NCBI GenBank assembly: GCA_964396965.1
Contig: CAYNGD010000006.1
Location: 8,771-72,770, forward strand
DNA: 64,000 nucleotides
Reading direction: 5' to 3'
Source of the DNA: an uncultured Dehalococcoidales bacterium
GTDB taxonomy: Bacteria > Chloroflexota > Dehalococcoidia > Dehalococcoidales > BS750m-G39
The notes below the pieces were generated by a model. That model did no database searches. It was not told the origin of the DNA and saw only the letters and a program-made list of their open reading frames with translations. This document shows positions 8,402 to 27,178 of this stretch, in pieces. Numbering within the stretch: position 1 is the first letter of the stretch; every line of letters begins with the position of its first letter. Made by a program: the position numbers and the translations under genes.

Positions 8402-9553
8402 ATGGAAGATGTTGCTATTATTGGTGCCGGACAGAGCGCCTTCAGCCGTAGCTGCGGTGAGTCTATCCGGGAGCTAGCTTTCGAGGCCTACAAGGAGGCG
8501 ATGGCAGGGCTGGATATCACCGGTGACAATATCGACGCCTCGGTTATCTGCTCGGCGCCGGAATATGATAAACAGCGCTCGCCTTCGGGCCTGATTTCGG
8601 AGTACCTGGAGCTGACCCCCAAGCCCACCTTCTATATTGAGACGGTCTGCTCCTCGAGCAGCACGGGCTTAAGGGTGGCCTGGTCGCTGATAAAGGCCGG
8701 GCTGCACCAGGTGGTAGCGGTAGTCGGCTTCCAGAAGATGTCCGAGCTCTCCTCCCGTGACGCCGCCGAGAGGATGGGGCGGGGGGGAGACATAATCTGG
8801 GAGTCGCCCTTCGGAATCACCATGCCCGCCGGCTACGCCATGTACGCCCGGGCCCATATGGAAAAGTACGGCACCACTGAGGAACAGATGGCTAAAATCC
8901 GGGTCAAGAACTCCCACTACGGGGCGACCAACCCCAAGGCCAACTACCGCAAGGAGCTGAGCCTGGAGGATATTTTAAATTCGGAGATGATAACCAGCCC
9001 CTTAAAGAAGTTTGACTGTTGCGCCAACGCCGACGGCTCCTCCTGCGTCATCCTGGCCCGGGGCGACGTGGCTAAGAGCATCACCAAGAAGCCCATCTGG
9101 GTTATCGGCCTGGGGGCGGCCACCGATACCATGAGCATGGCCGGAAGGCAGTCGCTCACCGGGCTGCGCTGTGCTCAGGAGGCGGCCAGGCAGGCCTATA
9201 AGATGGCCGGGGTCAAGCCCCGGGACATTGACGTGGCCGAGGTCCACGACTGCTTTACCATCTCCGAGATTCTGGCCTACGAAGACCTTGGCTTCGCCAA
9301 GCCCGGTGAGGGGGCGGGGCTGATTGAGGACAAAGAGACCTACGCCGACGGCAAGATACCGGTAAACGTTGATGGCGGCCTGCTCTCCAAGGGGCACCCA
9401 ATCGGTGCTACTGGCGGCTCGCAGATTCGGACTATCGTCCGCCAGCTGCGTGGGGCGGCCACCGAGGCCCAGGTGAAGAACGCCGAGATAGGTCTGGTGC
9501 ACAATATCGGCGGCGTCGGGCAGTACGGCAACGTCACCATTTTGAGGAGGTAG
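8402..9553 (+). CDS. SCP2/archaeal-type thiolase (acetyl-CoA C-acyltransferase-like)
   Basis: 383 aa with nucleophile Cys in ETVCSSSS, plus VHDCF, GHPIGATG and HNIGG motifs typical of the DUF35-associated thiolase family. Confidence 0.85.
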   Translation: MEDVAIIGAGQSAFSRSCGESIRELAFEAYKEAMAGLDITGDNIDASVICSAPEYDKQRSPSGLISEYLELTPKPTFYIETVCSSSSTGLRVAWSLIKAGLHQVVAVVGFQKMSELSSRDAAERMGRGGDIIWESPFGITMPAGYAMYARAHMEKYGTTEEQMAKIRVKNSHYGATNPKANYRKELSLEDILNSEMITSPLKKFDCCANADGSSCVILARGDVAKSITKKPIWVIGLGAATDTMSMAGRQSLTGLRCAQEAARQAYKMAGVKPRDIDVAEVHDCFTISEILAYEDLGFAKPGEGAGLIEDKETYADGKIPVNVDGGLLSKGHPIGATGGSQIRTIVRQLRGAATEAQVKNAEIGLVHNIGGVGQYGNVTILRR

Positions 9554-9556
9554 TTA

Positions 9557-9970
9557 ATGGGCTTTGAGAATTTCGGCACGGTCAGCTTTACTTCAGAGGC
9601 CAAGGTAACCGATTTCATCACCCAGCTGGAGGCGGGCAAAGTGATGGCCACCCGCTGCCGCCAGTGCGGGGGCAGCTACTTTCCCCCCAAGGCGGACTGC
9701 CCCAAGTGCCTCTCCAGTGATGTTGAGTGGTTCGAGGTTAAGAGCACGGGTAAGCTCCTGAGCTATACCGTGGTCAACTACGGCCCCACCGGTTTCGAGA
9801 ACGACGCCCCCTATATCCTGGCTCTGGTGCGGTTTTACGAGGGCATCCAGATTCTGGCCCGTCTTAGCCGGGATATCGCCGAGAAGGATATTAAGGTCGG
9901 TATGAGTCTTAAGGTCAGTCCGGTAAGGCTGGCCGATAACAGGATTGCCTACCAATTTAGCAGAGCCTAA
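9557..9970 (+). CDS. DUF35 protein (Zn-ribbon plus OB-fold)
   Basis: 137 aa with CRQCGGSYFPPKADCPKC (CxxC-x10-CxxC) followed by an OB-fold-like C-terminus. Only 3 nt downstream of the thiolase. Confidence 0.8.
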   Translation: MGFENFGTVSFTSEAKVTDFITQLEAGKVMATRCRQCGGSYFPPKADCPKCLSSDVEWFEVKSTGKLLSYTVVNYGPTGFENDAPYILALVRFYEGIQILARLSRDIAEKDIKVGMSLKVSPVRLADNRIAYQFSRA

Positions 9971-9984
9971 CAAGGAGGACAATC

Positions 9985-11391
9985 ATGGTTGGTATTACCT
10001 CATACGGCGCTTATGTGCCCCTCTACCGGCTGAGCCGGGAGGCGGTAGCCAGGGGCGCCCGCGGCGAGAAGGCGATATGTAACTTCGATGAGGACAGCAT
10101 CACAATGGCGGCGGCGGCGGCTATCGACTGCCTGACCGGCCTTGACCGGGAGAAGATTGACGGGCTCTATTTGGCCACCACCACCTCCCCCTACAGGGAG
10201 AAGTCGGGGGCGACTATCGTGGCCATGGCCGCCGACCTCAGAGAGGAAATCCTTACCGCCGATTTCGCCCATTCCCTGCGGGCGGGGACATCGGCATTCA
10301 GGTCAGCTATTGATGCGGTCAAGGCAGGCTCGGCCAAGAGGGTGCTGGTGACGGCGGCTGACTGCCGTCTGGGGCTTCCCGGCTCGGTCTATGAGCAGAA
10401 CTTCGGTGACGGTGCCGGTGCCCTCCTTATCGGCGACACTAATGTTATCGCCAACATTGAAGATAGTTACTCGGTCTATAACGAGATAACCGACGTCTGG
10501 CGATCTGCCGGCGACACCTTTATCCGTTCCTGGGAGGACCGCTTTACCACCACCCACGGCTACGCCACGGCGGTGAGCGAAGCGGTATCAGGGCTATTAA
10601 AGAAGACCGGCCTGAAGCCGGCCGATTTCGCCAAGGTTGTTCTCTATACCCCGGACGCCCGCCGCAGCGCCGACGTGGCTAAAAGACTGGGCTTTGACCC
10701 CAAGACCCAGCTCCAGGACCCCTTATTTAATTTTCTGGGCAACACCGGCAGCGCCCTCCCCCTGATGCTGCTGGCGGCGGCGCTGGAGGAGGCCAAGGCG
10801 GGCGACAGGATACTGCTGGCCAGCTACGGTAACGGCAGCGATGCCTTTGTCCTCCAGGTGACCGAACAGATAGCCAAAATCAAGCCCCGGCGCGGAATGA
10901 AGGGGCATCTGGCCTCGAAGAAGGTAATGGATGATTACCGCCAGTACCTCATCTGGCGGGGAATCCTGCCGATAGAGCCGCGCAAGGAGACGGTGGCCTT
11001 TATCTCCGCCCCGGCCCTGTGGCGGGAGCGAGACGCCAACCTGCGTCTGCGCGGGGTCAAGTGCAAGGTCTGCGGCACCATCCAGTTCCCGCCGCAGCGG
11101 GTCTGCATCAAGTGCCACAGCAAAGACCAGTTCGAGCCCTACCGCCTGTCGGACAAGAAGGCCAAGATATTCACCTTCTCCATGGACTATATCACCTATC
11201 CGGTGCTGGAGCGGCCGGTGGTCAACGTCACCGTTGACTTCGAGGGTGGGGGCAGGGCGCTACTGTATATGACCGACCGCGAGGCGGAGCAGGTCAAGTG
11301 CGGCCTGCCGGTGGAGATGAGCTTCAGGAAGCTGATGGTCAGGGACGGCATCCACAACTATTACTGGAAGGCGATGCCCTTAAGGACATAA
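9985..11391 (+). CDS. Archaeal-type HMG-CoA-synthase-like protein fused to a C-terminal DUF35 domain. Catalytic residues appear substituted.
   Basis: 468 aa. The N-terminal ~345 aa align by eye to archaeal HMGCS (VGITSYGAYVP, DVWR, GNTGSA, LASYGNGSDAF). The C-terminus carries CKVCGTIQFPPQRVCIKC plus an OB fold. The expected Glu/Cys/His positions read T/L/Y. Confidence 0.8.
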   Translation: MVGITSYGAYVPLYRLSREAVARGARGEKAICNFDEDSITMAAAAAIDCLTGLDREKIDGLYLATTTSPYREKSGATIVAMAADLREEILTADFAHSLRAGTSAFRSAIDAVKAGSAKRVLVTAADCRLGLPGSVYEQNFGDGAGALLIGDTNVIANIEDSYSVYNEITDVWRSAGDTFIRSWEDRFTTTHGYATAVSEAVSGLLKKTGLKPADFAKVVLYTPDARRSADVAKRLGFDPKTQLQDPLFNFLGNTGSALPLMLLAAALEEAKAGDRILLASYGNGSDAFVLQVTEQIAKIKPRRGMKGHLASKKVMDDYRQYLIWRGILPIEPRKETVAFISAPALWRERDANLRLRGVKCKVCGTIQFPPQRVCIKCHSKDQFEPYRLSDKKAKIFTFSMDYITYPVLERPVVNVTVDFEGGGRALLYMTDREAEQVKCGLPVEMSFRKLMVRDGIHNYYWKAMPLRT

Positions 11392-11419
11392 GCGACAGAA
11401 TAAAGGGGGAGGTAACCCT

Positions 11420-12598
11420 ATGGTAGGCATTAAAGATAGAGTGGCCATAGTGGGTATGGGTTGTACCCAGTTCGGCGAGCTCTGGGATAAAAGTCATAAA
11501 GATCTGCTGGTTGAGGCCTGCTACGAGGCCTTCGAGGACGCTGGCATCGAGCCCAAGGACATTCAAGCTGCCTGGTACGGCAGCCGCGAGACCGGCTTTA
11601 CCGGCACCCAGCTGGCCAATGCCATAAAGCTGGACTATATACCGGTCAGCCGGGTGGAGAACTTCTGCGCCGGCGGCACCGATACCTTCCGTAATGCCTG
11701 CTATGCCGTGGCCAGCGGCGTCTGTGAGATCGCCCTGGCAGTGGGGGTGGAGAAGTGCAAGGACCACTACGGCGGCTTCTGCATGGACATTCTCGACCCC
11801 TTTGACCGCAGCATGGTGGAGTGGGAACTGCCCCCGGCCAGTCAGTTCGCCCTGCTGGCCACCAGGTATATGCACCACTACGGCTGGAAGTACGAGGACT
11901 TCAAGCGGATACTCTCCATGATTGACGTCAAGAACCATCACAACGGCACCATGTCCCCCAAGGCCCAGTTCCGGCGGGAGATAACCATAGAGCAGGCCAT
12001 GAACGCCCCCATGATTTCCTACCCGCTGGGACTGTATGATGCCTGCGGGGTGAGCGATGGTTCGGCGGCGGCCATTATCACCACCCCTGAGATTGCCAAA
12101 AAGATGAGAAAAGACTACGTCCTGGTAAAGGCTTTAGCCCTGACCAACGGTGCCGGCCAGGCGGTAATGCAGCCGGAGTACAATTTTATCTCCATCCCGG
12201 AGACGGCAACCGCTGCCGAGCACGCCTACAGAGAGGCGGGTATAACCAAACCCCGCCATGAGATAGACGTGGCCATAGTCCATGACTGTTTTTCCATTAC
12301 CGAGCTGATGACCATGGAGGACCTGCAGTTCAGCCCCAGGGGTAAGGCCCCGGAGGATGTTGAGGCTGGCACCTTTACCCTGGAGGGAGAGCTGCCGGTT
12401 AATACTGACGGGGGGCTGAAATGCTTTGGCCATCCCCTTTCGGCCAGCGGGCTGAGGATGATTTATGAAGTCTACAAGCAGCTGCAGGGTAAGGCCGGCC
12501 CCAGGCAGCTGAAGAAAGCGGATATGGGTCTAACCCATAATGTGGGAGGTATCTGCGGCTTCTTTAACTGCACCGTGGCTTTGTTCGGTAGACCATAA
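11420..12598 (+). CDS. SCP2/archaeal-type thiolase (second copy)
   Basis: 392 aa with a Cys nucleophile in ENFCAGGT, plus VHDCF, GHPLSASG and HNVGG. Confidence 0.85.
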   Translation: MVGIKDRVAIVGMGCTQFGELWDKSHKDLLVEACYEAFEDAGIEPKDIQAAWYGSRETGFTGTQLANAIKLDYIPVSRVENFCAGGTDTFRNACYAVASGVCEIALAVGVEKCKDHYGGFCMDILDPFDRSMVEWELPPASQFALLATRYMHHYGWKYEDFKRILSMIDVKNHHNGTMSPKAQFRREITIEQAMNAPMISYPLGLYDACGVSDGSAAAIITTPEIAKKMRKDYVLVKALALTNGAGQAVMQPEYNFISIPETATAAEHAYREAGITKPRHEIDVAIVHDCFSITELMTMEDLQFSPRGKAPEDVEAGTFTLEGELPVNTDGGLKCFGHPLSASGLRMIYEVYKQLQGKAGPRQLKKADMGLTHNVGGICGFFNCTVALFGRP

Positions 12599-14351: not shown

Positions 14352-15584
14352 GTGAGCATCTCTAAGAGCCAGACTAACGGAGCCAATTCCCGCTGGTATG
14401 CGCTTATCCTGGCAGCGCTGACCTTAACCTTTACCGTCGCCATGCAGCAGATCTGCATGTCGGTGCTTTTCAAGGAGATATCGGAGGAGCTTGGCCTGAG
14501 CCTGGTGCAGATAGGCCTTGTCTGGGGTACACCCGCCTTTTCTGGTTTTCTTATCGTCATTATCGGCGGGCTGCTCTCAGACCGCTACGGGGCCAGACGG
14601 GTTATTGGTGTTGCCTGTATTGTGGCGGGGATAGCCGGTGCCCTGAGGGGTACCGCCGGCGGCTTTGCCAGCCTGTTATTGTTCACTTTCCTGATGGGTC
14701 TGGCGATTTGGGTTATACCACCTAGTGCCTTCAAGAACAACGCCGCCTGGTTTTCAGGAAGGCGGCTGGTAATTGCCAACGGCGTGCTCTCAACCGGTAT
14801 GGGATTTGGTTTTACTTTGGGGTCCTTGGTTAGTGCCACCATACTATCGCCGTTTCTGGGCGGCTGGCAGAATGTGCTGTTCCTCTACGGTGGTATTGCC
14901 GTCGTGTTTGGTTTTCTCTGGCTTTTCACGGCCAAGGAGTTTACCGGGTCGGCGGCTCCGGTAAGTGGAGTGCCGCTGCGCCAGTCGATAGCGCATGTAT
15001 TTCCGGTCAAGTCTCTCTGGTTTATCGGTCTGACCCTGCTGGGCTATTCCGGTTGTATTCAGGCAGTTATCGGCTACATGCCTACCTATCTCCGTAATAT
15101 AGGCTGGACGGTGGCCAGCGCTGACGGCACGCTGGCTGCTTTTACTGCGGTCAGTACCCTGGGCGCTATTCCGCTGACCATGTTATCCGATAGAATCGGT
15201 TTGAAAAAGGCGCTGATTTTCCCGATACTTGTGGTCACCATTCTGTGTGTGGCCTTGCTGCCGGTAGCTGGTAACACCATGGTATGGGTGCTGATGATAT
15301 TGATGGGCGTATCCCGTGACGGGCTTATGGCCGTCTGCCTCACCATGAGCACCGAGACGGAGGGCATCGGCAGCGTCTATGCTGGAGCCGCTGTGGGGCT
15401 TACGCAGACTATTAATTATGTCGGCCAGCTTTTTGCCCCTCCACTGGGTAACAGCCTGGCCAGCCCGGCTAATCCCGCTTCGCCCTATCCCTTCTTCCTC
15501 TGGGCGGGCTTCGGGCTGCTGGGCTTGATTTCTTTCGTTTTCGTCAGGGAAACGGGGTGGAAGCGGAAAGAGCTAAGGCGATAA
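14352..15584 (+). CDS. MFS transporter
   Basis: 410 aa with about 12 hydrophobic segments and an MFS-like GGLLSDRYGARR loop motif. Start codon is uncertain (GTG, no clear RBS). Confidence 0.8.
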   Translation: MSISKSQTNGANSRWYALILAALTLTFTVAMQQICMSVLFKEISEELGLSLVQIGLVWGTPAFSGFLIVIIGGLLSDRYGARRVIGVACIVAGIAGALRGTAGGFASLLLFTFLMGLAIWVIPPSAFKNNAAWFSGRRLVIANGVLSTGMGFGFTLGSLVSATILSPFLGGWQNVLFLYGGIAVVFGFLWLFTAKEFTGSAAPVSGVPLRQSIAHVFPVKSLWFIGLTLLGYSGCIQAVIGYMPTYLRNIGWTVASADGTLAAFTAVSTLGAIPLTMLSDRIGLKKALIFPILVVTILCVALLPVAGNTMVWVLMILMGVSRDGLMAVCLTMSTETEGIGSVYAGAAVGLTQTINYVGQLFAPPLGNSLASPANPASPYPFFLWAGFGLLGLISFVFVRETGWKRKELRR

Positions 15585-17818: not shown

Positions 17819-19027
17819 ATGGCTGGGCCTTTAGACGGGGTCAGGGTGGTGGAGATAACCATGTTTCAGCAGGGGCCGGTGGCCGGTATGAGGTTGGGTG
17901 ACCTGGGTGCCAAGGTGATTAAGGTTGAGGCTAAGACCGGAGACCCAGGTAGAGGGATGATGAGGATGGTCGGCGTCGATGCCGGCCTAAAGGGGCGAAA
18001 CTATTACTTTGAGAGCAATAACCGCAACAAGAGGAGCATCGTCCTTGACCTTAAGACGAGAAAGGGGATGAAGGTATTCTTAAAGCTGATTGACCGGGCT
18101 GATGTCTTTCTGACCAACATGAGCATCGAGGCACCGCAGAGGATGGGCATCAGCCCCGAGGTGTTGCTCAAGAGAAATCCACGGTTGATCTATGCCCATG
18201 CCTCCGGATGGGGCCGTAAAGGCCCGGATGCCAGCGAGCTTTCCTTCGACTATACCGGCATTGCCCGGTCGGGGACGATGATGATGTGTGGGGAGAGGGG
18301 TGATCCGCCGGGAATCCTGATACCGGGTATGGGTGATGAGCAGGGTGGGCTTATCTGCGCCTGGGCGGTGACCGCCGCCCTCTATGCACGGGAGAAGACA
18401 GGCCGGGGGCAGCTGGTCGATACCTCTTTGATGGGCAGCCTGATTTCCCTGCACGGGGTCAGCTTCTCGGCGCCTGGGGTTCTGGGACAGGAGTTCCCCA
18501 GACTACTCAGGTCGGAAGCGGGCAACCCGATTTATAACCACTATGGGTGTAAGGACGACAAATGGATTGTCTTGGCTCACCTCCAGCCCGACCGGTACTG
18601 GCCCAATGTCTGCCGGGCGATGGGGCTGGAGGAGCTGGAGCATGACCCCAAATTTAGCACGATAGAAGCCAGGCACGATAATGCCAGGGAGCTGGTGGCT
18701 ATCCTGGACGAGAGGTTCGCCACCAGGACCAGGGATGAATGGATGGAGATTTTTAAGAGGGAGGATGTAATCTATACCCCGGTCCAGTCAGCCAGCGAGG
18801 TCTTTGAGGACGGACAGGCGCTGGCCAATGACTATATCATCCCGGTTGACCATCCGGTCTGGGGCAGGATAAAGATGCTGGGCTTCCCCTGGACATTCCA
18901 CGAGACACCAGCCTCGGTGCAGAGGGAGGCCCCCGAGCTCGGCCAGCACACCGAGGAGATTCTGCTGGAGCTGGGCTATAGCTGGGAGGATATCGCTGCT
19001 TTAAAGAATGAAGAGGCGATACCTTAA
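17819..19027 (+). CDS. Class III (CaiB/BaiF family) CoA-transferase
   Basis: 402 aa with LDGVRVVEITMFQQGPVAGMRLGDLGAKVIKVE at the N-terminus and family-typical length. Confidence 0.88.
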   Translation: MAGPLDGVRVVEITMFQQGPVAGMRLGDLGAKVIKVEAKTGDPGRGMMRMVGVDAGLKGRNYYFESNNRNKRSIVLDLKTRKGMKVFLKLIDRADVFLTNMSIEAPQRMGISPEVLLKRNPRLIYAHASGWGRKGPDASELSFDYTGIARSGTMMMCGERGDPPGILIPGMGDEQGGLICAWAVTAALYAREKTGRGQLVDTSLMGSLISLHGVSFSAPGVLGQEFPRLLRSEAGNPIYNHYGCKDDKWIVLAHLQPDRYWPNVCRAMGLEELEHDPKFSTIEARHDNARELVAILDERFATRTRDEWMEIFKREDVIYTPVQSASEVFEDGQALANDYIIPVDHPVWGRIKMLGFPWTFHETPASVQREAPELGQHTEEILLELGYSWEDIAALKNEEAIP

Positions 19028-19082: not shown

Positions 19083-19295
19083 TGCTTAAATATGGATGAG
19101 AATAAGATGTTAAATATCGCCTTCCAGGACTATTATTACGCCTATTATTTTACACCGAAAGGTGTGCTTGGGAGGTTTGCGGCCTGAAGCAGGGTAGTTA
19201 AGAGCTAAAAATAAACAGGAAAGCTAAAAGGAACCCTCCCAAGCGGGAGGGTTCTCCGTTTTTAGGAATATAACCAAAGGAGGACTAAAAATCAA
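19083..19295 (+). promoter_or_regulatory. Structured 5' leader L2, paralogue of L1
   Basis: Terminator AACCCTCCC-AAGC-GGGAGGGTT plus CTCCGTTTTT (19232..19263). Upstream GCTTGGGAGG (19166..19175) is an exact complement of CCTCCCAAGC in the terminator 5' arm. Confidence 0.5.
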
Positions 19296-20237
19296 GTGAC
19301 CGAAAGAATGGTTAAAAGAAGGTATGAAATCTTTACCATTGCCCCCAACTTTTACCAGCTGGGTACCCCCTCCTATCCGGCCTATCTGACGATGGGGGAT
19401 AAAGGGATGATTATCGAGGGGGGCACCGGGGCTACCTTTCCCATTATCGTTGCCCAGCTCCGGGAGCTGGGCAACGAGCCGGAGCGGATAGAATACGTTG
19501 CCCTTACCCATACCCACCCCGACCATTTCGGCGCCGTACCGCACCTAAAGAAGCTGTGGCCTCATCTGAAGGTTATCGCCAGCGACCTGGCGGCTAAGCT
19601 GCTGCAGAAGGAAGAAGTCATCAAGGACTTTGTCCGCATGGATCGCACCATCGCCGAGATTCTGCTGGTCAAGGGCGATATCGACTGGTGGCCCGTCGAG
19701 CTGGAAAACCCGGTCTTCAAAATTGATAGGATTGTCGGCGAGGGGGATAAGATAGACCTCGGTTCGGGTATGGTATGGACCGTTTATGAAACGCCGGGGC
19801 ATTCGCCCTGCCATATCTCCTTTCACAACGAAAGGGATGGCATACTGGTTATCGGGGACGCCACCGGGATATACGAGCCCGACAAAGAGGTCTTCTGGCC
19901 TAACTATTTCCAGTCCCTGGAGGAGTACTGCAACAGCATTCGCAAGCTGGCGGTGCTGCCGGCTAGGATAGGCGCCCGCAGCCACGGCGGTGTTGTCGGA
20001 GGGGAACCCGGGCACTATTTGCGGAGGGTTATAAAAGCTACCGAGGCTTATCACCGCGAGCTGATGGACCGGCTGGCTGGCGGTGAGAGTCCTGAGGCGA
20101 TTGCCCTGGATAAGGCGAAGTGGGTATATACCTTCACCAACCTACAGCCCTTTAAGCTGATACATGCCATGACCGGGCTTACCCTCAGGCTTTCTCAGGC
20201 GGCGGATGGTAAAGAAGGCCTGTTTGGTGTCCCCTGA
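19296..20237 (+). CDS. MBL-fold metallo-hydrolase
   Basis: 313 aa with the HTHPDH (HxHxDH) motif plus later His/Asp ligands. Start codon is uncertain because the RBS is 12 nt from the GTG. Confidence 0.8.
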   Translation: MTERMVKRRYEIFTIAPNFYQLGTPSYPAYLTMGDKGMIIEGGTGATFPIIVAQLRELGNEPERIEYVALTHTHPDHFGAVPHLKKLWPHLKVIASDLAAKLLQKEEVIKDFVRMDRTIAEILLVKGDIDWWPVELENPVFKIDRIVGEGDKIDLGSGMVWTVYETPGHSPCHISFHNERDGILVIGDATGIYEPDKEVFWPNYFQSLEEYCNSIRKLAVLPARIGARSHGGVVGGEPGHYLRRVIKATEAYHRELMDRLAGGESPEAIALDKAKWVYTFTNLQPFKLIHAMTGLTLRLSQAADGKEGLFGVP

Positions 20238-20279: not shown

Positions 20280-21437
20280 ATGCCAAGTGAGGCTATTGGC
20301 GGGCTGATGGCAGCCGATAAATACTACCAGGACTACGGCGCCAGGGCCAGAGAGCTTAAGAAGCAGGGGAAAAAGATAATAGGCTACCTGTGCGCCTTTA
20401 CCCCGGTGGAGATCATCACCGCCGCCGGCCTAGTGCCTTTCCGGATAAAAGGAGATGTTAACGAGCCCATCACTAAGGCCGATACTGAGATGGAGACCAT
20501 CGTCTGCCCCCTGGTGCGGAGCTGCTTTGATATGGCGCTTAAGGGAAACTATGAGTTCCTTGACGGCATCGTCATCCCCCACGCCTGTGACAGCATCTCC
20601 CGGACCTACGATGTCTGGAAGTATTCACTGAACCTCCCCTACTCCCATTTCATCAATATGCCCCACAGCACCGACGGGCCGTCACTCGAATTTTACAAGG
20701 CGCTGCTGGGCACGTTAAGGAAGAGCCTGGCCAAGTTTGCCGGAAGAGAGATTTCCGACCAGGACTTGAGAGAGGCAATAAAGCTCTACAACCAGAACCG
20801 GGCTAAAGTGCGGGAGCTGTATGAGCTGAGGAAGGCCTCGCCGCCCCTGATATCGGGTGCGGAGATAACCAGGGTGTTGGTAGGGGCAATTAGCCTGCCG
20901 GTTGAGGAGGCCACCCGGCTCGTTGACAGCGTTATCGAAGAGGTCAAGCAGCGGCCGCCGCTACCGGCCAAGGCAGCCCGGCTGATGGTGGTTGGTGCCG
21001 AGGTTGACGATATTGCCTTCATCGACCTCATCGAGGACAGCGGGGCCTGGGTGGTGGCCGACGACCTCTGCCCCGGGGCGAGGGAGTTCTGGGCCGATGT
21101 TGAGGTCACCAAGAATCCGATTGACGGCATCGCCGAGCGGTATTTAAGGAAGATAAACTGCGGCCGGACCTTCCGTGAGAGAAAAGGGAGCTATGACGAC
21201 TATCTCGAGGAGAGGTTCGGGCATATCGGGCGTTTTATTAAAGAATTTAAGGTGGATGGGGTGGTGCTCTATATTTACAAGTACTGCGACCCTTACGGCT
21301 TCGACGTGCCGCCGATGAAGGGCTACATCGAATCTAAGGGAACGCCGGTGCTCTACCTTGAGGACGAGTATTCCATGTCCACCATCGGCAGGCTCAGGAC
21401 CAGAATTCAGGCCTTCCTGGAATTGATTGCTAAATAG
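20280..21437 (+). CDS. Benzoyl-CoA reductase / 2-hydroxyacyl-CoA dehydratase family subunit (BzdN/BcrC/HgdB-like)
   Basis: 385 aa HGD-D-type sequence (IGYLCAFTPVEIITAAGLVPFRI, conserved Cys in CPLVRSC, PHACDS). Confidence 0.85.
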   Translation: MPSEAIGGLMAADKYYQDYGARARELKKQGKKIIGYLCAFTPVEIITAAGLVPFRIKGDVNEPITKADTEMETIVCPLVRSCFDMALKGNYEFLDGIVIPHACDSISRTYDVWKYSLNLPYSHFINMPHSTDGPSLEFYKALLGTLRKSLAKFAGREISDQDLREAIKLYNQNRAKVRELYELRKASPPLISGAEITRVLVGAISLPVEEATRLVDSVIEEVKQRPPLPAKAARLMVVGAEVDDIAFIDLIEDSGAWVVADDLCPGAREFWADVEVTKNPIDGIAERYLRKINCGRTFRERKGSYDDYLEERFGHIGRFIKEFKVDGVVLYIYKYCDPYGFDVPPMKGYIESKGTPVLYLEDEYSMSTIGRLRTRIQAFLELIAK

Positions 21438-21458
21438 TAGTTTATAAGGAGAACGGTT

Positions 21459-22796
21459 ATGACCGAGGAGAAGAAACCGGAGGAGAGAAAAAAGAGGAGG
21501 ACGGCCACCGAGGCGGCGGCCAAGATAGGGCCGATGGCCAAGGCGATGAACGCCGCCGTGCTTCAGGCGAGCCAGGATGGCGAGCCGATAGCCTACTCCT
21601 TTATCTACAGCGGCTATGACGAAATCATCCGGGCGATGGATATCGTCCCCGCCTGGACGGAGAACTACGCCGGAATCTGCGGTGCCAAGCGCGATGCCCA
21701 GCGGTTCCTGGAGAGGGCGGAGGGGGAGAACTTCTCCCGCTCCCTCTGCACCTACGCCCTCTGCGGCCTGGGCTTTGACAACTGGCGCGAGGAGCTGGGG
21801 GAGATGCCCCTGGATGCCCCCTGGGGTGGGCAGGCCCGGCCCACGGTGATGCTGGGCAGCGGCCAGGTCATCTGCGACCCCAGGTACAAGTGGTACCAGG
21901 CGGCCCAGCACTATATGACCGACGTGCCGGTCTATGTCGGCGGGCTGCCCTATCCCCCCTATGAGGAGGACTACGACTACCGCGAGGTGCAGGACTACTA
22001 CGTGAAATATATCGTCGGGGAGCTGCGGGGGCTGGTCGAGTTTCTGGAGAAGAATACTAATAGAAAGATGGACTGGGAGCGCTTGAGCCAAGTGGTTGAC
22101 ATCAGCGACCGCACCTGGAACACGATTTCCGAGGCCTACGACCTGCGCAAGGCGGTGCCCTGCCCGATGGGCACCGGCGACGCCATGAATACCATGGTGC
22201 CGATGACCTTCATGATGGGAACCCAGGAGGCCCTGGACTTCTTCAAGGACCTATATGATGAGCTTAAGTGCAAGATAGCCAACAAAGAGGGCGTAATTCC
22301 CGACGAGAAATACCGGCTGCTCTGGGGTGGGGGGCTGCCCTCGTGGTTTGCCCTGACTGATTTTAACTACTTCAACAGCAGGGGGGCGGTCTTTCCCGCC
22401 GAGACTACCTACCGGCTGCTGGAGCCGGTCTATAAGCTGGACTTACCTAAGGTCAGCGACCCACTGGAGCACCTGGCCTGGCGCTGGGTGAGGTACTGGA
22501 CCTGTCGTCATGACAGGGCCAGGAAACGCCCGGGCTCTACCCCTGAGGTTGAGCGCCTTATTGAGTATATCGAGGAATACAAGATAGACGGGGTGGTGAT
22601 GCACGAGGCCTTCTCCTGCCGCAGCTGGCACCCCGGCCTGATATGGCAGCTTAACCAGCTCAAACGGGTCTATAGTGATATACCATCGCTGGTTCTGGAG
22701 AGCGATATCGTTGACATCAGCTCCTATAACGAGGCCGACACCAGGGCCAGGATAGATGCCTTCATCGATACCCTGGAGGCGGTCAAGAGCCGGTGA
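21459..22796 (+). CDS. Benzoyl-CoA reductase / 2-hydroxyacyl-CoA dehydratase family subunit (BzdO/BcrB/HgdA-like)
   Basis: 445 aa, second HGD-D-type subunit with conserved Cys residues (SLCTYALCG, AFSCRSW). Tightly linked to its neighbours. Confidence 0.85.
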   Translation: MTEEKKPEERKKRRTATEAAAKIGPMAKAMNAAVLQASQDGEPIAYSFIYSGYDEIIRAMDIVPAWTENYAGICGAKRDAQRFLERAEGENFSRSLCTYALCGLGFDNWREELGEMPLDAPWGGQARPTVMLGSGQVICDPRYKWYQAAQHYMTDVPVYVGGLPYPPYEEDYDYREVQDYYVKYIVGELRGLVEFLEKNTNRKMDWERLSQVVDISDRTWNTISEAYDLRKAVPCPMGTGDAMNTMVPMTFMMGTQEALDFFKDLYDELKCKIANKEGVIPDEKYRLLWGGGLPSWFALTDFNYFNSRGAVFPAETTYRLLEPVYKLDLPKVSDPLEHLAWRWVRYWTCRHDRARKRPGSTPEVERLIEYIEEYKIDGVVMHEAFSCRSWHPGLIWQLNQLKRVYSDIPSLVLESDIVDISSYNEADTRARIDAFIDTLEAVKSR

Positions 22797-23638
22797 AAAG
22801 CCAGTATTTCGCCGGGGTTGACATCGGTTCCACCATGACCAAGGTGGTCATCATGGACCAGGCGACCCTGGCCTCGGTTATCGGCCCCACCGGCCCCGAG
22901 CACCGCAAGCTGGCCAACCGGGTGATGGAGGAGGCGCTAGGCAAGGCCGGACTTGCCTTCGAGGAGATAACCTACCTGGTGGCCACCGGCTACGGGCGGA
23001 TCAACGTCCCCTTCGCCGACAGGCAGATAACCGAGATATCCTGCCACGCCCGGGGGGTGGCCCACCTGCTGCCCGGGGTGAGGACGGTGATTGACATCGG
23101 CGGCCAGGACAGCAAGGGAATCAAGCTCAAAGACGGGCGGGCGGTGGACTTCGTTATGAACGACAGGTGCGCCGCCGGCACCGGCCGCTTTCTGGAGGTG
23201 ACCGCCGAGAGCCTCGGCGTCAGCCTGGAGGAGATGGGTAAATTAGCGCTGGAGGCTAAGAATAAGGTGGAGATAGGCAGCACCTGCACCGTCTTCGCCG
23301 CCCAGGAGGTAGTGGCCAAGCTCTCCGAGGGGGCGGCGCTGGCCGATATCATCGCCGGCCTGCACGAGGCGATTGCTACCCGGATATACGGCATGGTCCG
23401 GCGCCTGAAGATAGAGAGGGAGGTGGCCCTGACCGGCGGCGGGGCTAAGAATATTGGCCTAGTTAAGTCTATGGAAGCTAAACTGGGCTTCCCGGTGCTG
23501 CTGCCACCGGAGCCGCTGCTCACCGGGGCTATCGGGGCGGCGCTGCTGGGTGGGGATATAGTCAAGGAGGCGGAGAAGAAGGGAGAGAAACTAAAGAAAA
23601 GCCCCCGTCGCCTCACTGAGGCTACCTTGTTTACATAA
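22793..23638 (+). CDS. BcrAD/BadFG/HgdC-type ATPase (electron-activating subunit 1)
   Basis: 281 aa with GVDIGSTMTK, DIGGQDSK, cluster Cys motifs RCAAGTGRFLE and STCTVFA. GTG start overlaps the upstream stop (GTGA). Confidence 0.88.
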   Translation: MKSQYFAGVDIGSTMTKVVIMDQATLASVIGPTGPEHRKLANRVMEEALGKAGLAFEEITYLVATGYGRINVPFADRQITEISCHARGVAHLLPGVRTVIDIGGQDSKGIKLKDGRAVDFVMNDRCAAGTGRFLEVTAESLGVSLEEMGKLALEAKNKVEIGSTCTVFAAQEVVAKLSEGAALADIIAGLHEAIATRIYGMVRRLKIEREVALTGGGAKNIGLVKSMEAKLGFPVLLPPEPLLTGAIGAALLGGDIVKEAEKKGEKLKKSPRRLTEATLFT

Positions 23639-23653
23639 TATAGGAAGAAAATC

Positions 23654-24439
23654 ATGATATATGTTGCCGGGATTGATATCGGCTCCGCCTTCGCCAAGGC
23701 GGTGATAATGGCGGAGAATAAAATAGTCGCCCACCGGGTAAAGCCCTCCGGCGGGAACTACAGGCTCACCGCCGGGCAGGTTATGGATGAGGCTCTTGAC
23801 AAGGCCAGGCTATCTCAAAAGGATATAGCCGGTACCGTAGCCACCGGCTACGGCGCATCCAGCGTCTCTTCGGCCAGCCAGACAGCCTCGGATATATCCT
23901 GCCTGGCTAGGGGGGTGCACTATCTCTTTCCTGGTGCCCGCACCGTCATTGATATCGGCGGGCAGTTCACCCGAGTGCTTAAATTAGACGGGCGGGGGAG
24001 GGCCACCTCCTTCCTGCTCAGCGAGAAGTGCGCCGCCGGTAGCGGGCGATTTCTGCAGGTGATTGCCAGGGTGCTTCAGGTTAACCTTGATGACATCGGC
24101 GAGCTATCGCTAAAGTCCAAGAAAAGGGTTGACTTCAACACCGGCTGCGCCGTCTTCGCAGAGTCGGAGGCGGTATCCCGCATCGCCGAGGGGGCGGCCA
24201 AGGAGGATATTCTGGCCGGTCTGCACCGGGCTCTGGCGGCTAAGATTCAGGCCATGGTGGCCAGGCTCGGCCTTGAGCCTGAGTGTGCTGTGGTGGGGGG
24301 TGGGGCCAAGGATATCGGGCTGGTCAGGAGCATAGAGGCCGGGCTGGAGGGTAAACTGCTGATTCCCGACGAGCCGCAGATTGTGGCCGCCCTGGGGGCA
24401 GCCCGGCTGGCCGGGGAAAAGGTCGATCAGGGGGACTGA
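23654..24439 (+). CDS. BcrAD/BadFG/HgdC-type ATPase (electron-activating subunit 2)
   Basis: 261 aa with GIDIGSAFAK, DIGGQFT, KCAAGSGRFLQ and TGCAVFA. Distinct paralogue of the preceding gene. Confidence 0.88.
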   Translation: MIYVAGIDIGSAFAKAVIMAENKIVAHRVKPSGGNYRLTAGQVMDEALDKARLSQKDIAGTVATGYGASSVSSASQTASDISCLARGVHYLFPGARTVIDIGGQFTRVLKLDGRGRATSFLLSEKCAAGSGRFLQVIARVLQVNLDDIGELSLKSKKRVDFNTGCAVFAESEAVSRIAEGAAKEDILAGLHRALAAKIQAMVARLGLEPECAVVGGGAKDIGLVRSIEAGLEGKLLIPDEPQIVAALGAARLAGEKVDQGD

Positions 24440-24440
24440 T

Positions 24441-25832
24441 ATGATTGATAAGAAGATTATAACCGAACTACGCAAGACGGTAGGCGAGAACGCCGTCATG
24501 ACCTCAAAGGAGGACCTCAATGCCTACTCCTACGACGGCACCACTACCTGGGCTCACCCGCCCGACGTGGTGGTGCTGCCGACCACTGCCGAGCAGGTCT
24601 CCCACATCCTGAAGCTGGTTAACGAGCACAGGGTCCCGGTCACCCCCAGGGGGGCCGGCACCAACCTCAGTGGCGGCTCCATCCCGATAAAGGGGGGTAT
24701 CGTCCTCTGCACCACCAGGATGGATAAAATACTGGACATAAACAAGGCCAATCTGACCGCCACCGTCGAGCCCGGCGTGGTGCTCCAGGACTTCAATCTG
24801 GCCCTGGCCAAGCAGGGGTTGTTCTATCCCCCCGACCCCCAGAGCTTCCTAGGCTGCACCCTGGGTGGCAACGTGGCCGAGAATGCCAGCGGCCCCTACT
24901 GCGTCAAGTATGGGGTAACCAAGCAGTACGTGTTGGGGCTGGAAGTGGTCCTGGCCAACGGCTACATCATGAAGCTGGGTGGGGTGACGGTCAAGAACCG
25001 CACCGGCTATGAGCTGATGATGCTGTTCACCGGCTCCGAGGGAACGCTGGGGGTAATCACCAAGATAACCCTCCGGCTGCTGCCGATGCCGCCGGCCAAC
25101 CAGACGGTGATGGCTGTCTTTGACGATGTGGCCGTCGGTGGGCAGGCGGTATCCGATATCATGGCCAGCGGGGTGGTGCCGGCCAAGGTCGAGTTCGTTG
25201 ATAACTTCGTCCTGAGGCGAATCGAGGAGATGACCCCGATGGGTCTGCCGGTGGAGGCCAAGGCGCTGCTGCTGATCCAGACCGATGGCTCGCCGGCGGC
25301 GGTTGAGGCCGAAACTAAGCAGATTGTTGAAATACTGAAGAAGAGCGGGGCCAAGGAGGTCAGGGTGGCCAAGGACGCTGCCGAGGCGGCGATGTACTGG
25401 AAGATGAGGAGCGCCGGCTATGCTGCTACCTTCGGTGCCGCCCATACCGTCATGACCGAGGACGTGACCGTGCCCCGGGACCGGATGGCCGAGTTCATCC
25501 ACAAGCTGGAGGAGATATCGGAGAGGACCGGCTTCTTTATCTGCTACCTGGGCCATGCCGGCGACGGCAATTTGCACCCATCGATATTCACCGATATCAG
25601 GAACGAGGAGGAGTTCGCCCGCGCCCAAAAGGCGATGGAGGAGATATTCGAGTCGGCGCTCTCGGTGGGCGGCGTCCTCTCCGGCGAGCACGGCATCGGT
25701 CTGGAGAAACAGCGCTTCCTCAAGCGGGCGATGGACCCGGTGGCCCTTGACCTGATGATAAAGATAAAGGGAATTTTGGACCCCAACCATATCCTCAACC
25801 CGGGCAAGATATGGGAAGAGGAAAGGGTTTGA
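24441..25832 (+). CDS. FAD-linked oxidase, GlcD / D-2-hydroxyacid dehydrogenase-like
   Basis: ATG 24441 lies 1 nt after the upstream stop (the track ORF from 24381 is an upstream extension). Shows an FAD PCMH domain (PRGAGTNLSGGSIP) and C-terminal GEHGIG. Confidence 0.88.
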   Translation: MIDKKIITELRKTVGENAVMTSKEDLNAYSYDGTTTWAHPPDVVVLPTTAEQVSHILKLVNEHRVPVTPRGAGTNLSGGSIPIKGGIVLCTTRMDKILDINKANLTATVEPGVVLQDFNLALAKQGLFYPPDPQSFLGCTLGGNVAENASGPYCVKYGVTKQYVLGLEVVLANGYIMKLGGVTVKNRTGYELMMLFTGSEGTLGVITKITLRLLPMPPANQTVMAVFDDVAVGGQAVSDIMASGVVPAKVEFVDNFVLRRIEEMTPMGLPVEAKALLLIQTDGSPAAVEAETKQIVEILKKSGAKEVRVAKDAAEAAMYWKMRSAGYAATFGAAHTVMTEDVTVPRDRMAEFIHKLEEISERTGFFICYLGHAGDGNLHPSIFTDIRNEEEFARAQKAMEEIFESALSVGGVLSGEHGIGLEKQRFLKRAMDPVALDLMIKIKGILDPNHILNPGKIWEEERV

Positions 25833-25833
25833 T

Positions 25834-27123
25834 ATGGCCAGGACCGAGCTGGACAAATACCAGCAGATAAAGAGGTTTGAGGACGACCTGGGCCAGTGCA
25901 TGAAGTGCGGCTTCTGCACCTTCTGGTGCCCGGTCTACCGGGAGGAGCGGGTAGAACCTTCGGTGGCACGGGGCAAGGACATGATGATAAGAGGGCTGCT
26001 GGCCGGTGAGCTGGATTATACTAAGGAGTATGCCGACCGCCTGAACCAGTGCACCCTCTGCATGGCCTGCACCGCCAACTGTCCGGCCAAGGCCAACATT
26101 CCCAACGTCATCGTCGCCGCCAGGGCGGACACGACCAAAGCTCGTGGCTTGAAGTTTCCCTATAATATCGTCTACCGCTGGCTGCTGCCCCGCCGGACGC
26201 TTTTCGGTGGCGTGGTCCGCTTCGCCTCCTGGCTCCAGGGTATCTTTATGCCCAGGACCGAGGGCACCATCCGGCATCTATCCCTGTTCCTCTCGGCGCT
26301 AGGCCGGGGCCGGAACATACCCCAGATTGCCCCCCACTTCCTGAGGCAAACGGTGCCGGTGGTGAATAAGCCGCCGGAAGGCGTTAAGACGGTGATGACG
26401 GTGGGCTATTTCACCGGCTGTATGACCGACTTCGTTCTGCCTGAGCTGGGAAGGCATATTATCGACTTCCTGACCCGGAACGGGGTCGAGGTCATCGTGC
26501 CCCGCGAGCAGGGCTGCTGCGGATCGCCGGTTTTCCTGGGGGCGGGTGACTTCGACACCGGCCGGAAGATGGCCGATAGCAACGTTAAGGCCTTTGAGGA
26601 GGTGGACTACGTGGTCACCGACTGTGCCACCTGTGTCTCGACGCTTAAGGACTACCCCAAATTTCTGGCCGATAGCCCGGAGCGGGAGGAGGCCTACAAG
26701 AAGTTCGCTGGCAAAATACTGGATATCTCCCAGTTCCTGGTTGACGTGCTGAAATTACCGGCGTCGGCCTATCAACCCTCGGCGGAAGCCAAAGGCAAGA
26801 AGGTCACCTGGCACGACCCCTGCCACCTCAGCCGTTATCTGGGGGTAACCAGCCAGCCCCGGCAGATTATAAGGTCGATACCCGGTGTGGAGTACATCGA
26901 GATGCCTAACGCTGACCGGTGCTGCGGCATGGCCGGGACCTTCAGCTTTTACTACTACGACCTGTCCAAGCAGATTGCCGATAAGAAGGTGGCGGCAATC
27001 AAGTCCACCGGGGCCGATATCGTCGTCACCGGCTGCCCCGGCTGTGAGATTCAGCTTATTGACAGCCTGCTGCGGAACAAGGTCCCGGTAGAGGTGATGC
27101 ACATTATGGAGCTGCTGGCCTGA
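25834..27123 (+). CDS. Fe-S oxidoreductase, GlcF/HdrD-like (2x[4Fe-4S] plus two CCG domains)
   Basis: 429 aa with CMKCGFCTFWCP, CTLCMACTANCP, CCGSP and CCGMAG. Confidence 0.88.
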   Translation: MARTELDKYQQIKRFEDDLGQCMKCGFCTFWCPVYREERVEPSVARGKDMMIRGLLAGELDYTKEYADRLNQCTLCMACTANCPAKANIPNVIVAARADTTKARGLKFPYNIVYRWLLPRRTLFGGVVRFASWLQGIFMPRTEGTIRHLSLFLSALGRGRNIPQIAPHFLRQTVPVVNKPPEGVKTVMTVGYFTGCMTDFVLPELGRHIIDFLTRNGVEVIVPREQGCCGSPVFLGAGDFDTGRKMADSNVKAFEEVDYVVTDCATCVSTLKDYPKFLADSPEREEAYKKFAGKILDISQFLVDVLKLPASAYQPSAEAKGKKVTWHDPCHLSRYLGVTSQPRQIIRSIPGVEYIEMPNADRCCGMAGTFSFYYYDLSKQIADKKVAAIKSTGADIVVTGCPGCEIQLIDSLLRNKVPVEVMHIMELLA

Positions 27124-27144: not shown

Positions 27145-27178
27145 AGAGGCTGGTTTTTAAAGCCAGCCTCTTTTGTTT
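27145..27178 (+). terminator. Intrinsic terminator after the glcF-like gene
   Basis: AGAGGCTGG-loop-CCAGCCTCT followed by TTTTGTTT. Confidence 0.7.

Follow-up and report, generated by a model that had tools for sequence, protein, structure and literature searches.

What reaction is catalyzed by a gene cluster that is built like a benzoyl-CoA reductase but has a hydroxyacid dehydrogenase for a neighbor? The question is raised by positions 20280 to 24439 of the window (the whole 64,000-nt stretch of the Dehalococcoidales contig CAYNGD010000006.1, whose coordinates are used throughout), where four genes encode two HGD-D-type subunits, here called L1 and L2, and two different BcrAD/BadFG ATPases, A1 and A2. 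A preliminary description had read them as mimicking the BzdNOPQ type of class I benzoyl-CoA reductase (BCR) rather than a 2-hydroxyacyl-CoA dehydratase (HAD) with a single activator. Judged from its sequences, the cluster represents a distinct, widespread, and uncharacterized clade of BCR/HAD radical enzymes with hardware like that of BzdNOPQ. We put at roughly one in two the probability that it is an ATP-primed ketyl-radical 2-hydroxyacyl-CoA dehydratase, or in reverse an enoyl-CoA alpha-hydratase, working within a 2-hydroxyacid/2-oxoacid pathway. All four open reading frames were recovered with the sizes first given, and Pfam assigned them as follows.

20280-21437, plus strand: L1, 385 aa, PF06050 (E = 8e-89); BzdN-like subunit for electron relay, predicted to hold an [8Fe-9S] double cubane.
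21459-22796, plus strand: L2, 445 aa, PF06050 (E = 2e-55); putative substrate-binding catalytic subunit with a three-Cys [4Fe-4S] cluster.
22793-23638, plus strand: A1, 281 aa, PF01869 (E = 2e-65), TIGR00241 (279 bits); canonical electron-activating ATPase with a GTG start and a 4-nt overlap with the L2 stop.
23654-24439, plus strand: A2, 261 aa, PF01869 (E = 5e-53); degenerate partner ATPase.

The likeness to BzdNOPQ of Aromatoleum (BZD; structure 8S02) is real at the level of architecture. Both systems combine a small and a large HGD-D subunit with two different BcrAD/BadFG ATPases, one canonical and one degenerate, and the BZD subunits of 379, 434, 267, and 303 aa compare with 385, 445, 281, and 261 aa in the window. 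BzdN holds an [8Fe-9S] double cubane on six Cys in a basic pocket (PMC11971306). In L1, Cys38, Cys76, Cys103, Cys264, Cys294, and Cys336 align with all six double-cubane Cys of BzdN and of the double-cubane cluster protein DCCP, and the basic surroundings are likewise similar, with Arg53 and Arg267 of BzdN retained and Arg290 replaced by Lys. The six Cys are kept in 72 of 75 L1 orthologues, while in our alignment the distal-cubane Cys are missing from HadC, Fusobacterium HgdB, MbdN, and two unrelated proteobacterial systems. The large subunits also share a three-Cys [4Fe-4S] site with Glu and Tyr: BzdO binds an aqua-[4Fe-4S] cluster on Cys95, Cys128, and Cys380, flanked by Glu65 and His131 (PMC11971306), and the corresponding L2 site, aligned to BzdO, MbdO, HadB, and HgdA, consists of Cys97, Cys139, and Cys387 with Glu68 and Tyr99. 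Since these five residues occur equally in HadB, HgdA, and MbdO, they do not discriminate between reductases and dehydratases.

Orthology to BZD, by contrast, did not stand. The benzoyl pocket of BzdO is formed by Trp46, Tyr97, Gln274, Tyr298, Leu302, and Leu383 (PMC11971306), and L2 replaces His131 by Arg142, Gln274 by Leu293, Tyr298 by Thr317, Trp46 by Ser51 (Ser or Cys), and Leu383 by Trp390. Identity to the BZD subunits is 24 to 31%, and the window proteins reached none of the NCBIfam equivalog cutoffs for Bzd, Bcr (BcrA-D), Had, or DCCP: L1 scored 193 bits against the 454 of TIGR03190 (BzdN), L2 98 against the 449 of TIGR03191 (BzdO), and A1 and A2 164 and 135, respectively, against the 380 of TIGR03192 (BzdQ). 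When distances were computed with 110 cluster representatives, L2 lay more than 2 substitutions per site from each of BzdO, MbdO, and HadB, nested with neither BzdO nor MbdO, and fell inside a large uncharacterized clade of its own. Gene order agrees with BZD only in part, since Aromatoleum has the degenerate P before the canonical Q whereas the window has the canonical A1 before the degenerate A2, and the order is not conserved in Desulfobacterota relatives, which have A2-L1-L2-A1. The Aromatoleum bzdNOPQ copies used here (loci L010 and L011, 10001-14460) are 88 to 90% identical to the crystallized BzdN. Downstream of them lie genes for an acetyltransferase, an SDR, an acyl-CoA dehydrogenase, and a TRAP transporter in place of the canonical bzdM-bzdA, and these copies are probably paralogous clusters of the bzd type.

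MbdONQP, the MBR-type 3-methylbenzoyl-CoA reductase (9G87/9GAI), offers a second reductase for comparison. Its heterotetramer contains the same two kinds of ATPase, MbdQ being canonical and MbdP degenerate; A1 and MbdQ share 45% identity, and MbdO has, like L2, an Arg after the third Cys. It differs in that MbdN has a single cubane and in identities of 24% for MbdO and 25% for MbdN, and A2 is closer to A1 (49%) than to MbdP (33%).

A scan of one genome per GTDB species returned 317 relatives, and the neighborhood counts below refer to the best 80 of these (62 to 84% identity). The nearest L2 relatives, at 73 to 89% identity, belong to metagenome-assembled genomes (MAGs) of Dehalococcoidales and other Dehalococcoidia; the best 80 also span Desulfatiglandales, Desulfobacteraceae, Syntrophorhabdus, a MAG labeled Syntrophus, and the benzene degrader ORM2a. 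None of the 80 loci departs from the L2 signature Glu68-Cys97-Tyr99-Cys139-Arg142-Cys387-Arg388-Trp/Phe390, and Arg142, Arg388, and Trp390 are specific to the clade in that none of BzdO, HadB, and HgdA has them. We therefore regard the 80 loci as one orthologous family that presumably catalyzes one type of reaction. Among the Dehalococcoidia members, the L2 N terminus (MTEEKKPEERKKRRTATEAA, 21459-21530) is highly charged and near-invariant; in BzdO, an N-terminal arm touches the CoA nucleotide (PMC11971306). A further conserved L2 stretch, KIANKEGVIPDEKYRLLWGG (residues 263 to 304, 22245-22370), matched polyubiquitin (phmmer E of about 1e-23, with no single stretch significant), a similarity that we dismiss as chance inflated by the ubiquitin repeats.

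Around this constant site the reductase-like hardware varies. At least 13 Desulfobacterota loci with several kilobases of flanking sequence have L1-L2-A1 only, with L1 still of the six-Cys kind, and A2 was not seen nearby in 21 of the 64 related loci that carry A1. In three loci (L089 and L090, both from Syntrophorhabdus, and L087), L1 would bind a single cubane: the three proximal Cys are kept, as in HadC, the distal ones are replaced by Ser/Thr, Ser, and Leu/Val, and the L2 signature is unchanged. The number of ATPase genes and the type of cubane thus change while the active site stays the same, so that neither a second ATPase gene nor a double cubane marks an enzyme as a stoichiometric two-electron reductase. 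A single cubane is found in MbdN as well, the subunit of a true BCR.

The ORM2a proteome bears on the same point. In that organism an abundant class II Bam enzyme is held responsible for reducing benzoyl-CoA; WAC06985.1, the orthologue, yielded no spectra while the neighboring glutaryl-CoA dehydrogenase and Etf were detected (PMC13101534). WAC06985.1 is named 2-hydroxyacyl-CoA dehydratase by PGAP and bcrC (K04112) by KEGG, an example of how automated annotation makes bcr genes out of this family. A class II enzyme alongside an orthologue without spectra counts against a benzoyl-CoA reductase role.

The ATPases are less partisan. Both carry the cluster-bridging Cys motifs CAAG(T/S)GRFL and C(T/A)VFA pointed out in the preliminary description: Cys126 lies in DRCAAGTGRFL of A1 and EKCAAGSGRFL of A2, and Cys165 in STCTVFA and TGCAVFA, respectively. 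All other A1 motifs are canonical (DIGSTMTK, TGYGR, DIGGQDSK, and MNDRCAAGTGRFL), while A2 deviates at each site (DIGSAFAK, TGYGA, DIGGQFTR, and LSEKCAAGSGRFL), and GGQD is present in 63 of 63 A1 orthologues versus 0 of 45 A2 orthologues. Candidate catalytic bases in DCCP-R are Asp94, the Asp of GGQD, and Glu69 (PMC9351452); because A2 has Phe and Asp at the equivalent positions, it is probably impaired in hydrolysis. A canonical/degenerate split is also found in BzdQ/BzdP, in MbdQ/MbdP, and in an uncharacterized Rhizobium system. A comparison with BzdP/BzdQ, HgdC, and HadI bore out the BzdP/Q-like asymmetry but gave no clade: among solved structures the homodimeric activator HadI is the top match of A1 as well as of A2, A2 is nearest to A1 and only 38% identical to BzdP, and a neighbor-joining tree with BzdP/Q, MbdP/Q, HadI, HgdC, and DCCP-R had deep-node bootstraps of 21 to 50% (42% for A2 with BzdP) and assigned the pair to neither the BCR nor the activator clade, so that the comparison then rested on identities and motif states.

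A tblastn search of plasmids for the named BCR references returned only generically annotated systems, among which two-ATPase and fused-ATPase layouts exist outside known BCRs. A Rhizobium leguminosarum plasmid (L009, 3433-8861) has an uncharacterized HGD-D system with two different activase genes, one strongly degenerate, and a Paraclostridium bifermentans plasmid (L093, 7074-10922) has another with a 1,282-aa fused "activase." Benzoyl-CoA reductases are therefore not the only systems with two nonidentical ATPases. A1 and its orthologues also have a C-terminal tail (...RRLxEATLFT, 23570-23638) that is not found in HadI, HgdC, MbdQ, or BzdQ and may be a docking peptide.

What tips the balance toward hydroxyacid chemistry is the company that the cluster keeps, which in the window comprises the following genes.

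24441-25832, plus strand: GlcD-type FAD-dependent D-2-hydroxyacid dehydrogenase subunit, PF01565 and PF02913, TIGR00387 (499 bits).
25834-27123, plus strand: GlcF-like iron-sulfur subunit, PF02754 (E = 3e-40) and PF13183, with a 4Fe-4S dicluster and two CCG domains; predicted electron outlet of the GlcD dehydrogenase.
19296-20237, plus strand: metallo-beta-lactamase-fold (MBL) hydrolase, PF00753 (E = 4e-25), with an HTHPDH motif in the translation.
17819-19027, plus strand: family III CoA-transferase, PF02515 (E = 4.5e-116).
14352-15584, plus strand: MFS transporter, PF07690 (E = 6e-43).

Against solved relatives, GlcD scored 337 bits with glycolate oxidase, 308 with LctD, 251 with D-LDH, and 198 with D-2HGDH. 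Its start is placed at the ATG one base past the A2 stop rather than at the TTG at 24381, because the former better fits orthologues of 462 to 463 aa. The MBL protein, whose closest solved relative is the 2-aminobenzoylacetyl-CoA thioesterase PqsE (74 bits, E = 8e-20), is a candidate acyl-CoA thioesterase. The CoA-transferase has succinate-hydroxymethylglutarate CoA-transferase as its best solved relative (185 bits), reached no equivalog cutoff, and is likely to be the substrate-activating enzyme in Dehalococcoidia. From MBL through L1, L2, A1, A2, and GlcD to GlcF, the genes lie on the same strand and either overlap or are no more than 42 nt apart, and strong terminator-like hairpins were found only 3' of the CoA-transferase (19230-19255) and 3' of GlcF (27145-27171). 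Given this tight spacing and the hairpin after GlcF, these seven genes probably form one operon; the CoA-transferase is probably its own transcription unit.

Across the 80 loci, L1 was found in 78, A1 in 64, A2 in 46, a GlcD-type gene in 29 (28 of them with A2), GlcF in 22, a CoA-transferase in 27 (all Chloroflexota-like), MBL in 11, an AMP-forming ligase in 11, and an indolepyruvate-type ferredoxin oxidoreductase (IOR) in 9. The core in Dehalococcoidia comprises the CoA-transferase, an optional MBL gene, L1, L2, A1, A2, GlcD, and GlcF. The 11 loci with MBL homologues beside the core include those of ORM2a and other Desulfobacterota. GlcD/GlcF occur in four arrangements spread over Chloroflexota and Desulfobacterota, namely, downstream of the core in Dehalococcoidia, upstream in Syntrophorhabdus and L062, on the opposite strand in ORM2a and L086, and as a single 863-aa GlcD-Fer4-CCG fusion in Desulfatiglandales. 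That the pair is retained in different phyla despite these rearrangements is good evidence that it is functionally coupled to the core. One Syntrophorhabdus locus carries GlcD-GlcF-IorA-IorB-ligase-ligase-L1-L2-TetR on a single strand, and in ORM2a the order is A1, GlcF and GlcD on the opposite strand, MBL-A2-L1-L2, and then genes for an acyl-CoA dehydrogenase, EtfB, EtfA, and an FeS-CCG protein. The IOR alpha subunits exceed the TIGR03336 cutoff of 651 bits, at 680 in Syntrophorhabdus and 753 in Dehalococcoidia, where the copy scored carries a fused GltD-like domain.

The preliminary description had noted the GlcDF-like pair and the lack of an adjoining gene for ferredoxin or 2-oxoglutarate:ferredoxin oxidoreductase (KGOR), both of which we find to be the case (no such gene lies between 14 and 30 kb of the window), and had suggested the pair as the point of electron entry. 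We reject GlcD/GlcF as a source of electrons for the ATPases. The potential of hydroxyacid/oxoacid couples, near -190 mV, is far above that of the activator cluster, and the pair, being of the D-2-hydroxyacid dehydrogenase type and co-conserved with the core across phyla, is better read as a pathway enzyme.

Read in this way, the neighborhood fits a route from an acid through its CoA ester to a 2-hydroxyacyl- or enoyl-CoA, and from there to a 2-hydroxyacid and a 2-oxoacid. The carboxylic acid would be converted to its CoA ester by the family III CoA-transferase in Dehalococcoidia or by an AMP-forming ligase in Desulfobacterota and Syntrophorhabdus. An A1/A2 heterodimer, whose chains are bridged by a [4Fe-4S] cluster through their Cys126 and Cys165 residues and which is reduced by ferredoxin or flavodoxin, would use ATP mainly at the canonical A1 site and send one low-potential electron by way of the L1 double cubane to the L2 [4Fe-4S] cluster, a path modeled on the structures of BzdNO, HadBC, and DCCP, although the motifs themselves are present in the sequences. 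At the open iron of L2, the thioester might then become a ketyl radical with the help of Tyr99 and Glu68, the alpha-hydroxyl would be eliminated or added, and the electron would be returned for more turnovers. To judge from the gene neighborhood, the PqsE-like thioesterase or the CoA-transferase could release the acid, GlcD/GlcF could interconvert the D-2-hydroxyacid and the 2-oxoacid, and in many relatives the IOR could take up the 2-oxoacid, which would hint at substrates of the phenyllactyl-CoA/cinnamoyl-CoA type. Recurring IOR and PqsE-like neighbors likewise hint weakly at aryl-substituted substrates.

Characterized dehydratases (HadBC/HadI of Clostridioides difficile, FldABC/FldI, and HgdAB/HgdC) share with the window system the enzyme family and the active-site Cys triad with Glu and Tyr, and their HadI is the best match of both window ATPases. 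Their operons are organized on the same principle, bringing together genes for a family III CoA-transferase, the dehydratase, its activator, and a 2-hydroxyacid dehydrogenase; the ldhA and hadAIBC-acdB-etfBA genes of C. difficile are an example. The acyl-CoA dehydrogenase and Etf genes that adjoin the ORM2a copy recall the latter arrangement, and several orthologues resemble dehydratases further in having a single activator gene or a single-cubane partner. One specific substrate that we considered, 2-hydroxyglutaryl-CoA, was abandoned. It had been suggested by the dicarboxylate-type relatives of the CoA-transferase and by the glutaryl-CoA dehydrogenase gene adjoining the ORM2a copy; a role for Arg142 in binding the distal carboxylate is unsupported, as Fusobacterium HgdA has Met at that position, and the idea is further weakened by expression of the ORM2a glutaryl-CoA dehydrogenase when L1/L2 was not expressed.

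Several observations weigh against a dehydratase or set the window system apart from the known ones. Among characterized enzymes, a six-Cys double-cubane partner and a two-gene asymmetric activator occur together only in BZD-type BCR, and no characterized 2-hydroxyacyl-CoA dehydratase has either one. The window partner subunit has six cluster Cys versus three in HadC or none in Fusobacterium HgdB, and its activator is a predicted heterodimer with one degenerate subunit, not the product of one homodimeric activator gene. Solved structures rank BzdN first for L1 (196 bits, followed by HadC at 152, DCCP at 111, and MbdN at 97) and BzdO first for L2 (86 bits, followed by MbdO at 71 and HadB at 57), and the HAD models are missed widely, with 99 bits against a cutoff of 750 for HadB (NF052455) and 187 against 700 for HadC (NF052456). 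Known HAD operons have NAD-dependent dehydrogenases (LdhA, FldH) in place of the FAD/FeS-containing GlcD/GlcF, a thioesterase is present here, and GlcD-type flavoenzymes normally oxidize hydroxyacids, which bears on the direction of flux. The neighborhood evidence is indirect, and GlcD is absent from 51 of the 80 loci, many of which are on short contigs. Finally, the hosts are Dehalococcoidia and Desulfobacterota rather than amino-acid-fermenting Clostridia, and those outside Chloroflexota are mostly known degraders of aromatic compounds, which an aryl-CoA reductase would fit too.

The alternative that survives best, although we consider it on the unlikely side, is a class I BCR-like two-electron reductase that dearomatizes benzoyl-CoA or an analogue, or reduces some other recalcitrant CoA ester, with stoichiometric use of ATP and the double cubane as a two-electron store; benzoyl-CoA itself is an unlikely substrate. 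Such an enzyme would account for the four-subunit layout and sizes close to BzdNOPQ, the six Cys with their Arg53 and Arg267 equivalents and Lys for Arg290, a degenerate ATPase subunit like BzdP or MbdP, the top structural matches to BzdN and BzdO, and hosts (Desulfatiglandales, Syntrophorhabdus, Syntrophus-like, ORM2a) from aromatic-degrading guilds. Reduced ferredoxin could come from the IOR-like enzyme, and aromatic acids can be activated by family III CoA-transferases, an example being the succinyl-CoA:benzoate CoA-transferase of Geobacter. These points are offset by the missed BzdN, BzdO, BzdQ, and BcrA-D cutoffs, by an L2 that nests with neither BzdO nor MbdO and has replaced His131, Gln274, Tyr298, and Trp46, by the one-ATPase and single-cubane orthologues, and by the reliance of ORM2a on a class II BCR with its orthologue undetected on benzene. 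Genes that should accompany ring reduction are also missing: the 64-kb window has no ferredoxin, ferredoxin-regenerating oxidoreductase such as KGOR, dienoyl-CoA hydratase, dehydrogenase, or ring hydrolase of the bzd type, with GlcD/GlcF, thioesterase, and CoA-transferase genes in their place. For the dienoyl-CoA hydratase-type genes named in the preliminary description, the search covered the window and the relatives, and no crotonase homologue (dch/oah type) was found within about 10 kb of the core in any of the 80 loci. Ring reduction would leave GlcD/GlcF and the thioesterase unexplained, and it can be argued that stoichiometric ATP consumption would be costly to energy-limited strict anaerobes.

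Rather improbable, in our estimation, is a third reaction type, for instance ATP-coupled reductive alpha-dehydroxylation of a 2-hydroxyacyl-CoA with two electrons to the acyl-CoA. Here a ketyl radical would lose hydroxide and a second electron from the double cubane would replace beta-deprotonation, a route for substrates without a beta-hydrogen (mandelyl-CoA-like). This would reconcile reductase hardware, namely, the double cubane and asymmetric ATPases, with a hydroxyacid/oxoacid neighborhood, and the invariant residues Arg142, Arg388, and Trp390, which none of BzdO, HadB, and HgdA has, speak for it too. It is without precedent or direct evidence, the single-cubane and one-ATPase orthologues oppose an obligatory two-electron store, and the ORM2a copy adjoins acyl-CoA dehydrogenase and Etf genes as in classical HAD operons, though these were expressed when L1/L2 was not. 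In its broader form, also a long shot, the clade would be a third BCR/HAD type whose members use ATP and the double cubane for net two-electron reactions of CoA esters that stem from 2-hydroxy- or 2-oxoacids, including arylacrylyl- or aryllactyl-CoA reduction; if so, this type would have a wide distribution among Dehalococcoidia of the subsurface and among aromatic degraders that are syntrophic or reduce sulfate. A small-molecule reductase like DCCP/DCCP-R of Carboxydothermus hydrogenoformans (6ENO, 7YYL), acting on substrates of the acetylene, hydrazine, or azide type beside functionally unrelated neighbors, is very improbable: L1 does have the six double-cubane Cys, its top NCBIfam match is the double_cubane model NF040772, and electrons are likewise delivered by an ATP-driven BcrAD-type ATPase, but the score is 233 bits against a cutoff of 350, L1 has Lys57 in place of the seventh motif Cys of DCCP (Cys94), DCCP has a narrow channel and is homodimeric, as is its reductase, whereas L1 pairs with a CoA-ester-type subunit that lacks the distal Cys and has the three-Cys/Glu/Tyr thioester site common to BzdO and HadB, and CoA-transferase, ligase, and thioesterase neighbors recur.

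The distinction between dehydratase and ring reductase matters because Dehalococcoidia are among the most abundant bacteria of marine and subsurface sediments, and metagenome surveys credit them with anaerobic degradation of aromatic rings largely through bcr or bzd labels on genes such as these. KEGG K04112 for the ORM2a orthologue and the JGI name "BcrC/BadD/HgdB" are examples of such labels, and papers on marine Chloroflexi describe class I bzdNOPQ/bcr genes and conclude from these that aromatic compounds are degraded; an ATP-dependent dearomatizing reductase in this lineage, which the preliminary description had thought noteworthy, is thus no new idea. For this clade the ring-reductase naming is probably wrong, and if the operon encodes a hydroxyacid-linked radical (de)hydratase rather than a BCR, those inferences about the carbon cycle need revision. 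The clade is also a natural intermediate between the DCCP/BzdN and HAD types; its close orthologues differ in having a double or a single cubane and one ATPase gene or two, and this variable hardware around a constant active site makes the clade a ready-made system for asking what the second cubane and the degenerate ATPase do.

Some relatives carry additional copies or partners of the system. Loci L001 and L002 (8802-15648) have an L1-L2 pair, 77% identical, without adjoining ATPases; it adjoins genes for a CoxG protein, a molybdoenzyme of the xanthine dehydrogenase family (FAD, 2Fe-2S, and Mo subunits), a cyclase, and a divergent CoA-transferase. MAG CAZQRP01 has two copies of the system (L018 and L043). 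Together, the ATPase-less pair and the double-copy MAG suggest paralogues that act on different substrates and share one common ATPase pair. In four Dehalococcoidia loci (L005, 16484-19792; L053; L055; L059), the cluster lies beside a gene for a 1,102-aa fusion of IOR alpha with a GltD-like NAD(P)-binding FeS flavoprotein, which could link 2-oxoacid oxidation to NAD(P)H.

The MFS transporter gene is syntenic in 8 of the 80 loci, all from Dehalococcoidia, along with the housekeeping genes comM and uvrA, and on this synteny, its sole and weak basis, the transporter is a possible substrate importer. The remaining window genes are housekeeping genes (ribosomal proteins, uvrA, rpoD, dnaG, and ATP synthase). 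Between rplA and rplJ (8402-12598) lie genes for an archaeal-type acetoacetyl-CoA thiolase, an HMG-CoA synthase fusion, and a second thiolase; in the fusion, HMG-CoA synthase is joined to a DUF35/ChsH2 zinc-ribbon and OB-fold domain and scores 254 bits against the NF003274 cutoff of 244.

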